Below are positions 1,651 to 23,555 of a stretch of DNA of 63,958 bases, one piece after another. Both the position numbers and the translations under genes were made by a program. Below the pieces are notes generated by a model, which saw only the letters and a program-made list of their open reading frames with translations, was not told the origin of the DNA and searched no databases. The first letter of the stretch is position 1, and every line of letters begins with the position of its first letter. Source of the DNA: Candidatus Omnitrophota bacterium (GTDB taxonomy: Bacteria > Omnitrophota > Gorgyraeia > Aquiviventales > Aquiviventaceae); the NCBI GenBank assembly GCA_016209275.1, contig JACQWM010000015.1, positions 1-63,958 on the forward strand. Reading direction: 5' to 3'.

Positions 1651-3315
1651 TTACATCCGGGTGGGAGCCGAAATGCCCAGCAGGCCTAGGCCGTTGGCCA
1701 GCACCTGTTGGGCGGCGCGGATTAACCCTAAGCGCGCGGCCGTCAATTCCTGGTCCTCGCTGATGACGCGGTGCTTCGTATAAAACACATGGAACGTCTC
1801 GGCGAGCTTGCGCAGGTAGATGGTCAGGCCGTGCGGCTCAAGCGAGGCGGCGCAGAGCCGCAGCACCATCGGGTATTGGACAATCGCGCGCAGCAGCAGC
1901 CGCTCCTCGGTTTCGGCGAGCCGTTCGAGCGCCTTAGGGGAGGGCTCGCGCGGCGCGCCATTAGCTTTCGCCAGGATGCTGCAGATGCGAGCGTGGGCGT
2001 ATTGCACGTAATAGACCGGGTTCTCTTGAGATTGCGCGGCGGCGAGCTCCAGATCGAAATCAAGGTGGCTCTCCATCGTGCGCATCACGAAGAAGAATCG
2101 CGTCGCATCCACGCCGACTTCATCCAGCACCTCTTCAAACGTCACGAATTCGCCGGCGCGCTTGGACATCGGCACCGGCGCGCCATGGCGCGACAAGGTG
2201 ACCAGCTGCACGATCTTGACCGTCAGGCGCTCGGCCGGTAATCCTAAGGCTGCCACCGCCGCTTTGACGCGCGCGATGTACCCGTGATGGTCCGGCCCCC
2301 ACAAGTTGAGGATCTGATCGTACTTCCGCTCAAACTTGAACTGATGGTAGGCGATATCCGGGGCGAGATACGTCAGCTCCCCGTTGCGCTTCTTGATCAC
2401 GCGGTCCTTGTCATCGCCATAGGCCGTCGAGCGGAACCACATCGCCTCCTCAGCGTCATACACGGCCCCGGCCTCGCGCAAGGCCTTGAGGGCGGCGTCG
2501 ATCCGGCCTGAGGTGCGCACCCATTGCTGGCTGGTCCACACATCGAACACCAGGTTGAATCGCGCCAGCACGCGGCGGATCTCGGCAAGCTGCTCGTCCA
2601 TCCCGAACGCCATAAAGGCCTCGAGCGGCTGATCCGCCCATCGATCGCCGTGCTGCTGGATCAGGCGCGCCGCGCTCTCGGTGACGTACGAGCCATGGTA
2701 GCCGTCCTCGGGAAACGGCTCGTCGCGTCCCAGAGCCTGGAGGTATCGCGCCCGCAGCGAACGTCCGAGCATTTCAATCTGGCGGCCTTCATCATTCAGA
2801 TAGTACTCGGTGGTCACGCGGAAGCCCTGCGAGCGCAGCAGCCGAGCGAGCACATCCCCGACGCCGGCTTGGCGGCCGTGGGCCAGGCTCAGCGGGCCGG
2901 TCGGATTCGCGCTGACGAACTCGATGTTGATCAACGGCGATGGGTCGCGGCGGCAATGGCCAAAGCGGCCGCCCTCTTCAAGCGCTTGCGTGAGCGTCTC
3001 AATCAGGGCGCTGGGGGAGAGAAAGACGTTGAGAAACCCTGCGTTAGCTTCCGCGCGGTCAATCGCCTCCCCGGCGTTTGTCTGCCGGCTGCACGCCACA
3101 AAGGCCTCGGCGAGCGCTTCGGCAAGCCGGGGCGGCGGCTGGCGCAGCGAGGCGGCGAGCTTAAACGCCGCCGCGCTTGAGACATCGCCGAAGCTGGGGT
3201 CTTTGGGCATGTCCCAGCGCAGCAGCGCCTCAGGCACGGCCGCTTCGGGGGAGAGCCGGCTGATGGCGCTGCGTAAGATCTGGCTGAGTTGGGTCTCAAG
3301 CGTCTGTACAACCAT
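1651..3315 (-). CDS. argS: Arginine--tRNA ligase
   Basis: 554-aa ORF. Class I aaRS signatures SANPTGPLSLAHGR (HIGH-like) and PMSKRAGEF (KMSKS-like); anticodon-binding C-terminus ending ..APTRM. Confidence 0.92.
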   Translation of the reverse strand: MVVQTLETQLSQILRSAISRLSPEAAVPEALLRWDMPKDPSFGDVSSAAAFKLAASLRQPPPRLAEALAEAFVACSRQTNAGEAIDRAEANAGFLNVFLSPSALIETLTQALEEGGRFGHCRRDPSPLINIEFVSANPTGPLSLAHGRQAGVGDVLARLLRSQGFRVTTEYYLNDEGRQIEMLGRSLRARYLQALGRDEPFPEDGYHGSYVTESAARLIQQHGDRWADQPLEAFMAFGMDEQLAEIRRVLARFNLVFDVWTSQQWVRTSGRIDAALKALREAGAVYDAEEAMWFRSTAYGDDKDRVIKKRNGELTYLAPDIAYHQFKFERKYDQILNLWGPDHHGYIARVKAAVAALGLPAERLTVKIVQLVTLSRHGAPVPMSKRAGEFVTFEEVLDEVGVDATRFFFVMRTMESHLDFDLELAAAQSQENPVYYVQYAHARICSILAKANGAPREPSPKALERLAETEERLLLRAIVQYPMVLRLCAASLEPHGLTIYLRKLAETFHVFYTKHRVISEDQELTAARLGLIRAAQQVLANGLGLLGISAPTRM

Positions 3316-22029: not shown

Positions 22030-22523
22030 TCGATCACCGGCTCTTCCGGCAGCGGATCACCAAGCAACGGAGGAGACCCGCCGCCAACCGGCCATGTCTG
22101 ATCCGCGCCTGGCGGCTTCGTTGTCGGATCCCAGGCATGAGTGACAGACAGAAACGAGTTGACGCCCTGCCGTTGCGCTGTGGCCGTAAACGTTGCCAAT
22201 GCCCCTGCTAAAGGTCTGCCGGTCCCATCGGTTGAAACCGCCACCCGAAACACGACCCCATCAACCGTGGGCAGCGGAGTGTAAATCTGCCGAAAGTCCG
22301 CCACGGCGGTGCCCGCAGTTGAGTCGACCGGCAGGAAGGTATTGTTCTGCGCCCAGTAGGCCCGTTCGCCAGCATAGATGGCACGAAGGATATCGATGGC
22401 GGCTTCCCGACGACGATTTTCAACCGCGCGCTGATACTGCGGCAGGGCGATCGCGGTGAGGACCGCCAGCAGCAAGACCGCAGCCAGCATCTCCATCAAG
22501 GTGAACCCTTGCGATCGCATCAA
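22026..22523 (-). CDS. Pilin-like protein
   Basis: MMRSQG|FTLMEMLAAVLLLAVLTAIALPQYQRAVE.. Confidence 0.8.
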   Translation of the reverse strand: MMRSQGFTLMEMLAAVLLLAVLTAIALPQYQRAVENRRREAAIDILRAIYAGERAYWAQNNTFLPVDSTAGTAVADFRQIYTPLPTVDGVVFRVAVSTDGTGRPLAGALATFTATAQRQGVNSFLSVTHAWDPTTKPPGADQTWPVGGGSPPLLGDPLPEEPVIE

Positions 22524-22846
22524 TACGCCACTCGGGTTGAAATTTCACGCGGCGTTGGACATGGCCCGGGAGGAGTGCACACCCCCGGACACGCAGAGAC
22601 CGTCACCACAACACTCACTCCATTTACCGCCAGCGGCCCGGCAGGGCTCCAACAGCCATTGAGTCTGAGCTGCTCTTGCGCCCACGTGACGCCGGCTTCG
22701 GAGGCGTAGAGCGCTTGGCTGCGCAGGCGGTGGAACCTGGCCCGGTGCGCCTCATTGCTCGCCATGGCCAGCAGCGCCATGCACACGATGGCGATCAAAA
22801 TCGCCGCCACCATCGCGAACGTCAGCACAAATCCTCTATTCTTCAT
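22520..22846 (-). CDS. PilX-like minor pilin (no Glu5), first gene of the pilus operon
   Basis: MKNRGFVLTFAMVAAILIAIVCMALLAMASNEAHR..ALYASEAGV..; GGAG Shine-Dalgarno 3 nt upstream of the ATG. Confidence 0.7.
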   Translation of the reverse strand: MKNRGFVLTFAMVAAILIAIVCMALLAMASNEAHRARFHRLRSQALYASEAGVTWAQEQLRLNGCWSPAGPLAVNGVSVVVTVSACPGVCTPPGPCPTPREISTRVAY

Positions 22847-22857
22847 CGTCTCCAGGC

Positions 22858-22895
22858 GATATCAGATATGAAACGGCCGTTTCATATCTGATATC
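22858..22895. repeat. GATATCAGATATC-family palindrome, copy 2
   Basis: GATATCAGATATGAAACGG|CCGTTTCATATCTGATATC, between the terminator and the pilX-like start. Confidence 0.95.
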
Positions 22896-22898
22896 AAC

Positions 22899-22930
22899 AA
22901 AAAACCGAGCCACCTGATTCGGTAGCTCGG
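22899..22930 (-). terminator. Rho-independent terminator
   Basis: Minus-strand RNA CCGAGCUACC-GAAUCA-GGUGGCUCGG-UUUUUU: 10-bp stem with one G.U pair, followed by U6. Confidence 0.8.
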
Positions 22931-23170
22931 CAATCTCTGCCTCTGGTCGGCCTCGGACTTCGTCCTCGGCACGCTCATCGGCGACCACGCACGCTGTGCG
23001 TGGTGCCCGCCTCGAGCGGCAGCTCGGCCATCTCAAGAGACCCGTAGCTTTGCCCCTCCTACGCTCAAACGTTTTCACGTTTGAGCTTCGGAGGGCCCTG
23101 CGTAGCTCAATCGTGCAAACGATTGAGCGAAGCAGGGGTCCCCAGATTACTCTGGGTTTGCCTTTATCGA
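22931..23170 (-). ncRNA. Candidate structured RNA of unknown class (sRNA or cis-acting leader of the pilus operon)
   Basis: No credible ORF. The region lies between a promoter-like element and the terminator. Hairpins: CCCAGA-GUAA-UCUGGG (23156-23141), two abutting paralogous two-tier hairpins (23137-23096 and 23095-23054), and CCACGCAC-AGC-GUGCGUGG (23003-22985). Confidence 0.5.
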
Positions 23171-23178
23171 CAATTATA

Positions 23179-23207
23179 AGTATGCCTCATCGTCAGGTGC
23201 GCGTCAA
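23179..23207 (-). promoter_or_regulatory. Candidate sigma70-type promoter for the structured RNA
   Basis: Minus strand: TTGACG (23207-23202), 17 nt, CATACT (23184-23179). A TATAAT hexamer abuts at 23178-23173. Confidence 0.4.
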
Positions 23208-23222
23208 GGCAGGGACGAGTCG

Positions 23223-23555
23223 TCACGCCCATGTGTTGGCGATCACCCAGGACAGATACGGGGGATGACCGGCCGTGACCGGCCAGGCAATGATCTCAGG
23301 GACATCATAAGGATGGAGCGCGCGGATCGTCTTGGAGAGCTCGGCAAATCGCTTCCGCGCGGTCTTGATCACGAGCAGGATTTCCGGGGCGCGCTCAATC
23401 TTGCCTTGCCACCGAAACACCGACGTCAGCCCTGGAACGATGTTCACGCACGCGGCCTGCCGCCGTTGCACGAGCCGCCCTGCGAGCCGCTTGGCCACCG
23501 CCATCGTTGGGCATGTCACGAGCACGACGACCACGTGCCCCGAGCGCGGCTTCAT
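23223..23555 (-). CDS. cutA: Divalent-cation tolerance protein CutA
   Basis: 110 aa; ..VVVLVTCPTMAVAKRLAGRLVQRRQAACVNIVPGLTSVFRWQGKIE..HPYDVPEII.. Confidence 0.88.
   Translation of the reverse strand: MKPRSGHVVVVLVTCPTMAVAKRLAGRLVQRRQAACVNIVPGLTSVFRWQGKIERAPEILLVIKTARKRFAELSKTIRALHPYDVPEIIAWPVTAGHPPYLSWVIANTWA

Follow-up and report, generated by a model that had tools for sequence, protein, structure and literature searches.

Class I cyclic di-GMP (c-di-GMP) riboswitches, or GEMM-I (Rfam family RF01051), are built on a three-helix core in which residue A47 stacks between the two guanines of the ligand; a type sensing cyclic GMP-AMP (cGAMP), known as GEMM-Ib from Geobacter, is marked by A20 in place of G20. 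In Clostridioides difficile, a c-di-GMP-II riboswitch with a terminator lies upstream of pilA1 and activates the type IV pilus genes when c-di-GMP is high. A different kind of structured sequence, the repetitive extragenic palindromes (REP) and bacterial interspersed mosaic elements (BIME) of enterobacteria and the REPINs of Pseudomonas, consists of short imperfect palindromes with conserved mismatches, which are intergenic and often arranged as inverted pairs. To our knowledge, a REP copy inside a riboswitch aptamer has not been reported. Here we describe a structured leader on the minus strand of contig JACQWM010000015.1 of a Candidatus Omnitrophota bacterium (assembly GCA_016209275.1; the 63,958 nucleotides (nt) analysed are referred to as the window), which precedes a type IV pilus-like operon. 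Judged by its identity and anatomy in the sequence, the leader is very probably a GEMM-I riboswitch with its own promoter and terminator; its aptamer is interrupted by an 84-nt pair of hairpins, and it is a new structural variant within the known class.

The reference aptamer for this comparison is Vc2 of Vibrio cholerae, in which the first-arm residues are numbered G20 G21 C22 ... G42 A43 C44 G45 C46 A47, C44 forms a long-range pair with the bulged G83 that is essential for folding, and C92 and G20 contact the ligand (PMC11705072). The Bc1 c-di-GMP-I riboswitch of Bacillus thuringiensis has an unusually long expression platform of several elements with two terminators (PMC11218506); both Bc1 and the window leader are GEMM-I riboswitches with a long platform, that of the leader having one terminator and a duplicated aptamer 3' strand. 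With RF01051 and Vc2 the leader shares the three-helix core, the junctions, the GNRA-capped first arm, G20, C44, A47, C92 and the bulged G83, as well as a terminator-type platform and a position before genes for surface structures. It differs from them by the hairpin pair between C44 and G45 (hereafter C44/G45), a very short second arm, an Rfam score below the cut-off and the duplicated 3' strand. Compared with the pilA1 switch of C. difficile, the same ON behaviour is favoured, but the latter is a GEMM-II riboswitch from another phylum and has no inserted hairpins. No description of a two-hairpin expansion at C44/G45 or of a duplicated-strand platform was found in the literature searched, most subscription journals being outside its scope.

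The interrupted aptamer

A permissive Rfam scan of the leader returned one non-trivial match, to RF03167 of clan CL00126, which was aligned over the whole model (1-80) at 23171-23014 with 35.3 bits (E = 2e-6) and a single 98-nt gap in the first arm. After removal of 84 nt in silico, canonical aptamers from five orthologues and five paralogues could be aligned with the core without gaps, at 68-81% identity. Inspection by eye together with the alignment gave the order AAAGGCAAAC-CCAGA-GUAA-UCUGG-GGAC, the 84 nt, and then GCAAAGCUACGGGUC...GAUGGCCGAGCUGCCG; the conserved junction blocks AAAGGCAAAC ... GGGAC ... GCAAAGC ... GCUGCCG are all present, and the three-helix architecture that defines RF01051 is found, 9 canonical copies being aligned with the shortened sequence free of gaps.

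Orthology points the same way. Orthologues of the operon's PilM-like gene are present in 29 of the 37 genomes of the order (genomes, contigs and loci compared here carry our handles G, C and L; contigs of the source genome are marked as its own), and upstream of the orthologous pilus operons of G012, G015, G018, G020 and G025 lie canonical, insert-free GEMM-I aptamers of 74-104 nt, which score 60-73 bits in Rfam. In G023, a different two-hairpin variant occupies this position. The first and second genes behind the riboswitches of these relatives are homologous to those of the window (blastp E = 1e-8 to 1e-21). The clan match, the gap-free core alignment and the canonical aptamers of orthologous operons thus support the cis-acting riboswitch or attenuator proposed in the initial annotation of the stretch, and the loose resemblance to class I c-di-GMP riboswitches noted there pointed to the right class.

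The 5' part of the aptamer (23157-23171) comprises the closing-stem 5' strand GUCG, the junction AUAAAG, the GC of the lower first arm and AAA, with the G20 equivalent at 23162. The segment at 23138-23156 holds the upper first-arm hairpin CCCAGA-GUAA-UCUGGG, with its GNRA loop (23156-23141), followed by GAC, the C of which (23138) is the C44 equivalent; all 6 pairs of this hairpin covary with at least two Watson-Crick types among 36 homologues. The initial annotation had taken the GAAA-capped hairpin after CAGGGC for the GNRA hairpin of the aptamer, which is incorrect: that hairpin is the second of the two inserted ones, the true first-arm hairpin is the GUAA-capped one, preceded by AAAGGCAAAC, and both of the hairpins it described as paralogous make up the insert between GGGAC and GCAAAGC. 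Beyond the insert, positions 23037-23053 contain G45-C46, which close the lower first arm, the A47 equivalent (23051), AA and the second-arm 5' strand AGCUACGGGUCUC, designated X; GCAAAGCUACGGG is found at 23053-23041. The aptamer is completed by copy A of its 3' strand, GAGAUGGCCGAGCUGCCG(CUC), at 23014-23034, which provides the second-arm 3' strand, the bulged GG (G83 equivalent), the C92 equivalent (23019) and the closing-stem 3' strand, and where the Rfam match ends (23014).

The equivalents of the ligand-contacting residues G20, A47 and C92 are hence kept, together with C44 and the bulged GG for G83, and the aptamer is predicted to bind c-di-GMP. The Vc2 row of the alignment agrees with the published numbering given above. 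For the putative tertiary contacts between the two arms, the GUAA loop, the C of GAC (23138) and the bulged GG in the 3' strand of the second arm are present as sequence elements; a tetraloop receptor could not be recognised in the very short second arm of the window. The source genome (1.80 Mb, 96.7% complete) encodes 6 GGDEF proteins and contains 20 further RF01051 matches above the cut-off, at 50-70 bits.

Two related classes were considered and rejected. Although RF03167, the c-di-GMP-I-GGC variant, is the best-scoring model for the window and its orthologues, all of these have A at position 47 (GCAAAGC) and not the G of the variant (GCGAAGC), a defining change that was read from the consensus and name of the RF03167 model, and the 35.3 bits of the window fall short of the cut-off of 59. 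A cGAMP-sensing GEMM-Ib aptamer is ruled out by G, not A, at position 20.

Some points weigh against the assignment. No Rfam gathering score was reached, in that RF01051 matched in two pieces of 25.4 and 22.1 bits (cut-off 35) and RF03167 remained at the value given above; the Rfam search suggested at the outset thus succeeded at the level of the clan, over the full model, and failed at that of the family. The insert follows immediately on C44, whose long-range pair is essential in Vc2, and is 2 nt away from A47, a place where loss or change of function is possible. Finally, the sequencing runs that hold the locus are DNA metagenomes only, with no RNA run among them. As to the first point, default Rfam searches miss the riboswitch because the module splits the core exactly between C44 and G45, as a single insertion of 84-98 nt.

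The twin hairpins and their relatives

The insert consists of two abutting 42-nt hairpins, each with two tiers. The first, H1 (23096-23137), has the form CCCUGC/UUC/GCUCAAUCGU-UUGC-ACGAUUGAGC/UAC/GCAGGG with a pyrimidine-type 3x3 internal loop, and the second, H2 (23054-23095), the form CCCUCC/GAA/GCUCAAACGU-GAAA-ACGUUUGAGC/GUA/GGAGGG with a purine-type internal loop and a GNRA terminal loop; both are delineated by local pairing and covariation. Their 24-nt core has 2 matches in the window, against 0.01 expected by chance. The compensatory nature of the differences between the two, already pointed out in the initial annotation, is borne out. In Vc2 numbering, the 84-nt module separates the neighbouring residues C44 and G45; the first-arm internal loop, in whose 3' side it is placed, is converted by it into a four-way junction.

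When relatives were searched at the DNA level, the 84-nt part gave matches of 70-83% identity in several genera, all of them between GGGAC and GCAAAGC of a GEMM-I aptamer. Nine sequences from 8 genomes, sharing both the site and the hairpin family, were aligned: 94.5% of the cells are paired, 20 of the 40 pairs are altered on both sides, and this level of pairing was reached in none of 500 shuffles, slid controls giving 35-46%. With scores of at least 94 bits, a covariance model built from the nine sequences (R1) found members of this sequence family in 10 of the order's 37 genomes, six of them in G047 alone; at E <= 1e-8 it matched 49 of 301 sampled genomes of the phylum, including other families and another class. 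Phylum-wide, 36 sense-strand copies show at least two Watson-Crick types at 28 of the 32 hairpin pairs; for H1, 5 of the 6 lower and 9 of the 10 upper pairs covary. Conservation and covariation in relatives, the absence of which, together with that of an Rfam match, had been named as an argument that would tell against the annotation, were looked for and found. A crosswise fold of the module into a single long hairpin is ruled out both by covariation, the informative positions supporting local pairing in 117 of 126 cells and crosswise pairing in 39 of 126, and by energy (-55.2 versus -45.4 kcal/mol). The internal loops are nearly constant, reading C-UNC-GC...GC-UNC-G in H1 and C-GAA-GC...GC-GNA-G in H2; H1 resembles the reverse complement of H2, and the module is consequently pseudo-palindromic.

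The site itself has received more than one sequence. Lower-scoring R1 matches are GEMM-I aptamers that carry two different hairpins at C44/G45, such as CCCCGC...GCGGGG pairs or short unrelated pairs. A flank-anchored pattern search of the 37 genomes retrieved no genuine single-hairpin insert of 4-34 nt at C44/G45, a weak negative since the search was noisy and its controls were similar to its matches; inserts at this site were seen only as hairpin pairs. The same noisy search also brought up hairpin pairs in the other (5') strand of this internal loop, in G021, G024, G016 and G009. C44/G45 is one of the few permissive places of the aptamer where hairpin pairs persist.

The second arm and platform of the leader resemble those of its pilus orthologues. 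The nearest counterpart of its module (83%) is found in G001:C2, ahead of a small, unrelated gene. Other twin-hairpin aptamers of the same family stand before genes for an HTH_17 protein (G047), a pilin-like protein (G022), a DUF7305 protein (G021) and ATP synthase subunit c (G011). Since the orthologous aptamers are insert-free and the kin of the module precede unrelated genes, the module was acquired by a pilus riboswitch that already existed, or swapped into it; the alternative is repeated loss from the others. The case of G011:C18 (L046) concerns an unusual c-di-GMP target: the gene behind the twin-hairpin aptamer matches Pfam ATP-synt_C (E = 1.4e-8), and the next gene resembles, on visual inspection, one for a b subunit.

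Hairpins of the same type also exist outside riboswitches. A solitary one lies in a 5' untranslated region (UTR; G022:C23), one is found in G025:C51, and in G019:C8 such a hairpin forms the tip of the second arm. In G284 there are at least 15 matches, including single hairpins at 96-98% identity and two identical 86-nt twin modules, each within an outer stem; a motif check detected no GEMM-I junction blocks around the twin copy on contig C2 of that genome. Multiple dispersed copies of imperfect palindromes, single and as inverted pairs, as is typical of REP and BIME sequences, are thus represented by G284, G160, G025, G022 and contig C27 of the source genome, and the twin hairpins belong to a REP-like family of hairpins that is dispersed in Omnitrophota genomes. 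The resemblance to REP and BIME sequences holds for G284, whereas in the window genome the family is limited to one or two loci. That the twin hairpins might be an abundant repeat of their own genome was rejected, BLAST and a structure-aware scan having given no other full copy and one loose pair on C27; as a strict structural scan finds the window copy alone, the family is not active in this genome.

Two side observations concern the free-standing copies. The outer-stem flanks of G284:C2:67568-67653 and G284:C3:186294-186379 are inverted relative to their identical modules, and the module may be insertable in either orientation, or invertible. Pairs of same-type hairpins are situated directly beside transfer RNA (tRNA) genes in the source genome (C27, ~3080-3200, L075, a loose pair) and in G160:C1 (~261990-262080, L156); these could function in termination or processing, or the position could be one where such pairs preferentially land.

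We give about an even chance to the view that the hairpin pair in the riboswitch is a passenger which selection keeps folded: selection would hold the hairpins in their own local structure, and the sensor would still work. In line with this, free-standing copies share the conserved loops, the orthologous aptamers are insert-free and unrelated hairpin pairs occur at the same site. It is possible, though we find it doubtful, that the pair has instead been co-opted as a functional part of a distinct riboswitch subclass, its junction tuning affinity or folding kinetics, or its loops binding a protein or RNA as a second input. The internal-loop sequences are kept across families and classes, beyond the needs of a harmless stem, but the presence of the same loops in free-standing copies means that their conservation need not serve the aptamer. 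Co-option would also fit with inserts that are always paired and flush with the junction, with the occurrence of the same module before many different genes and with its persistence in a genome otherwise nearly devoid of the repeat; against it stand the orthologous pilus riboswitches, which presumably work without an insert, and the unrelated sequences of other hairpin pairs at this very site.

Expression platform and direction of regulation

Downstream of copy A lies a spacer with a stable stem-loop (22938-23013), including CCACGCAC-AGC-GUGCGUGG at 23003-22985. In predicted folds, the base of this stem-loop pairs with the closing-stem strand of copy A; the spacer is homologous to that of a paralogue in the same genome (C17:16590-16677) and absent from the simpler orthologues. 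It is followed by copy B, GAGAUUGCCGAGCUACCG (22920-22937), a near-duplicate of copy A (which spans 23034-23017 in this comparison) that overlaps the 5' arm of the terminator. Copy B can replace A in the aptamer and carries the C92-equivalent C. This repetition of the aptamer 3' strand is found in all five orthologues and in eight paralogues of the source genome, where B comes 5-100 nt after A and forms or abuts the terminator 5' arm, and in G020 the best Rfam alignment uses copy B. Conversely, two paralogues (C49:5087 and C5:20172) have a simple design with classical ON logic: the partner of the terminator 3' arm is the 3' strand of the aptamer itself.

Folding of the leader with ViennaRNA, for the state before the terminator 3' arm is made, gave a minimum free energy (MFE) structure of -132.8 kcal/mol which pairs X with B; the forced A-form reached -120.8 and the forced B-form -129.1, all of these energies describing secondary structure without ligand, tertiary contacts or kinetics. 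The MFE structure likewise uses B in G015, G020, G025 and the own contigs C15 and C1, where the terminator overlaps only the closing-stem strand of B, which is the portion that bound ligand would lock. Moreover, the bases that precede B complement the loop-side bases of X (CAC:GUG in G020, CC:GG in G025, CGCG:CGUG in G018); plain duplication does not require such bases, which argues that the X:B pairing has been selected.

On these grounds, a mechanism can be modelled in which the 5' part of the aptamer would first pair with copy A as a transient partner and would then be captured by copy B, the 3' half at equilibrium, through a more stable helix. With no ligand, the terminator 3' arm would strip B off and transcription would stop ahead of the pilus genes; c-di-GMP bound to the B-form would lock the B strand, block the terminator and turn the pilus operon on. 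On balance we lean, slightly, towards such an ON switch at high c-di-GMP. Two results go the other way. The full-length MFE structure (-153.1 kcal/mol) has A-type pairing, the spacer hairpin and the terminator, and is about 11 kcal/mol more stable than the one that keeps X:B (-142.2); and copy A is aptamer-competent as well, such that early binding of ligand to the A-form would free B and favour termination, with the opposite sign.

A switch of this opposite sign, with c-di-GMP captured co-transcriptionally by the A-form, B left free to form the terminator and the pilus operon off at high c-di-GMP, we regard as the less probable direction, though a real contender. Copy A is a complete, consensus-like 3' half, the ~100 nt from A to B in the window would leave time for binding, and the full-length MFE corresponds to the A-form plus terminator. 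Yet in the orthologues the terminator overlaps only the closing-stem strand of B, and ligand on the A-form would there lead to the same outcome as no ligand at all; the B helix is longer, with the complementary bases before B in G020 and G025 arguing for a selected X:B pairing, and the simple-design paralogues of the same genome have ON logic. We think it unlikely that the hairpin repeat and the platform together make up a more elaborate device, in which the repeat would be a working part of a four-way-junction subclass, its GNA/GNA and UNC/UNC loops altering affinity or kinetics or adding a protein or RNA input, alongside the A-then-B strand-exchange platform.

The leader in its locus, genome and phylum

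All the elements that had been listed for this region, namely promoter, hairpins, terminator, palindrome, GGAG and ATG, were recovered at their positions on the minus strand of 22700-23400. The sigma-70-like promoter (23179-23207) is made of TTGACG (23207-23202), 17 nt and CATACT (23184-23179), and transcription would start near 23172. A consensus scan detected it as the sole promoter-like site in 22700-23400 (1 found versus 0.2 expected), and orthologous and paralogous leaders have promoters of the TTGAC..GGCATACT type at a comparable distance. The intrinsic terminator, GCCGAGCUACC-GAAUCA-GGUGGCUCGGU followed by a U run (22899-22931), has a stem of 11 pairs, 7 of them G-C, at 22931-22904, ahead of the T run, and is present in the full-length MFE structure. 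The interval between the terminator and the ribosome-binding site contains the palindrome GATATCAGATAT...ATATCTGATATC (GATATC; 22858-22895), a copy of a dispersed heptamer-repeat hairpin that lies outside the aptamer. GGAG (22853-22850) and the ATG (22846) belong to the first gene of the pilus-like operon (22520-22853), whose PilX-like product of 108 amino acids (aa) had no Pfam match; further downstream are N_methyl pilin genes and the PilM-like gene. Open reading frames of 80 and 90 aa overlap the region and cross the conserved RNA helices.

An assembly artefact is ruled out as the source of the twin hairpins: in four DNA sequencing runs from groundwater, the contigs show 0-1 differences from 22866-23300, and no contig without the module was found among them. 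These runs belong to one study, which probably includes the source sample, and hence do not constitute independent support.

The pairing of the module has so far been discussed as a property of RNA. It is quite improbable that it acts at the DNA level instead, where the palindromes would serve a dimeric regulator as operators, with a roadblock at +35 to +118, or would be bound by a transposase or nucleoid protein in the manner of REP/BIME sites. The hairpins are near-perfect inverted repeats, the family is dispersed in G284, and the folding energy of the pseudo-palindromic module is the same on both strands (-55.2 kcal/mol each). A strand test comparing G.U with A.C mismatches gave a mixed result, favouring selection on the sense-strand RNA for H1 (28 versus 7) and not for H2 (12 versus 16), the H2 mismatches recurring at one position in related sequences and therefore not being independent events. 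However, the stem sequences are free to vary while pairing holds, so that the upper stems lack a conserved operator half-site, H1 contains many G.U pairs, and the exact, repeated placement in one RNA junction is explained by RNA structure.

Less probable again is a dead riboswitch, in which insertion of the repeat would have destroyed binding and left the leader as a constitutive terminator or attenuator, or as a structured UTR. The location of the insert, hard against C44 and just before A47, and the lack of an Rfam model above threshold are what one would then expect. Nevertheless, the core positions are all intact, at 68-81% identity to copies of the working type, at least 49 of 301 sampled genomes keep the same insert at the same site in a core that is likewise intact, compensatory change maintains the fold of the hairpins, and a constitutive terminator before a whole pilus operon would be costly. 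Finally, that the terminated transcript of ~270 nt is mainly a trans-acting small RNA, the other possibility raised in the initial annotation, is highly improbable despite its own promoter and efficient-looking terminator: only 52 nt separate the terminator from the first pilus gene, the scan found no second promoter in them, as had been claimed, and the orthologous leaders are built alike and keep the same arrangement of leader and gene.

The 20 further GEMM-I aptamers of the genome (L001-L020; for example C49:5087-5162, C36:11932-12073, C57:30361-30436 and C38:40449-40526) amount to roughly one per 90 kb. Many precede genes for pilin-like or secreted proteins, three lie within 6 kb on C18, and the regulon is very dense. 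The G20 equivalent is A (..A-GC-AAAC..) in C38:40449-40526, C5:20172-20313, C17:16504-16584 and C48:49381-49468, and C in C42:17680 and C50:6982; as far as can be judged from the aptamer sequences, sensing in this genome may extend beyond a single cyclic dinucleotide. Two aptamers, C5:19908-20053 and C5:20172-20313, are arranged in tandem about 120 nt apart, each apparently with a promoter-like sequence of its own, one being of the G20 type and the other of the A20 type. In a further group, C-G takes the place of G21-C46 as the lower pair of the first arm (GCCACAC...GGAAAGC versus GGCAAAC...GCAAAGC). This clean compensatory change defines an aptamer sub-lineage, with members at C43:6296, C43:9105, C27:35144, C18:15966 and C18:12868 of the source genome and at L079-L081 of G047.

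The second-arm loops of the paralogues also hold extra sequence. The GATATCA-heptamer palindrome seen upstream of the first pilus gene (GATATCAGATAT...ATATCTGATATC) has ~300 short BLAST matches in the genome, many of them 38-50 nt long, and a summed metagenome depth in the thousands; five paralogues (C18:9843, C18:12868, C42:17680, C5:19908 and C50:6982) contain GATATC palindromes in their second-arm loops. C36:11932-12073 and C5:20172-20313 have in common a 76-nt second-arm-loop insert, a long stem with three small hairpins (CCCACCCCCUGCUGG...CCAGCAGGGGGUGGG), which is another structured passenger or extension.

If the leader is read as proposed, default Rfam scans miss riboswitches of this kind, and the c-di-GMP regulon of the Omnitrophota, which extends from pili and adhesin-like secreted proteins to ATP synthase subunit c, would be under-counted. 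The C44-G45 backbone, beside the ligand pocket of this much-studied aptamer, would take an 84-nt four-way-junction expansion in nature, providing a test of what the core tolerates and a possible site for engineering, and the duplicated 3' strand suggests a strand-exchange platform. More generally, dispersed hairpin repeats can settle in functional RNAs, where their shape is then held by compensatory evolution. For the organisms themselves, the leader would tie the expression of pili to c-di-GMP in a phylum without a cultured model, whose members are tiny and may depend on hosts.

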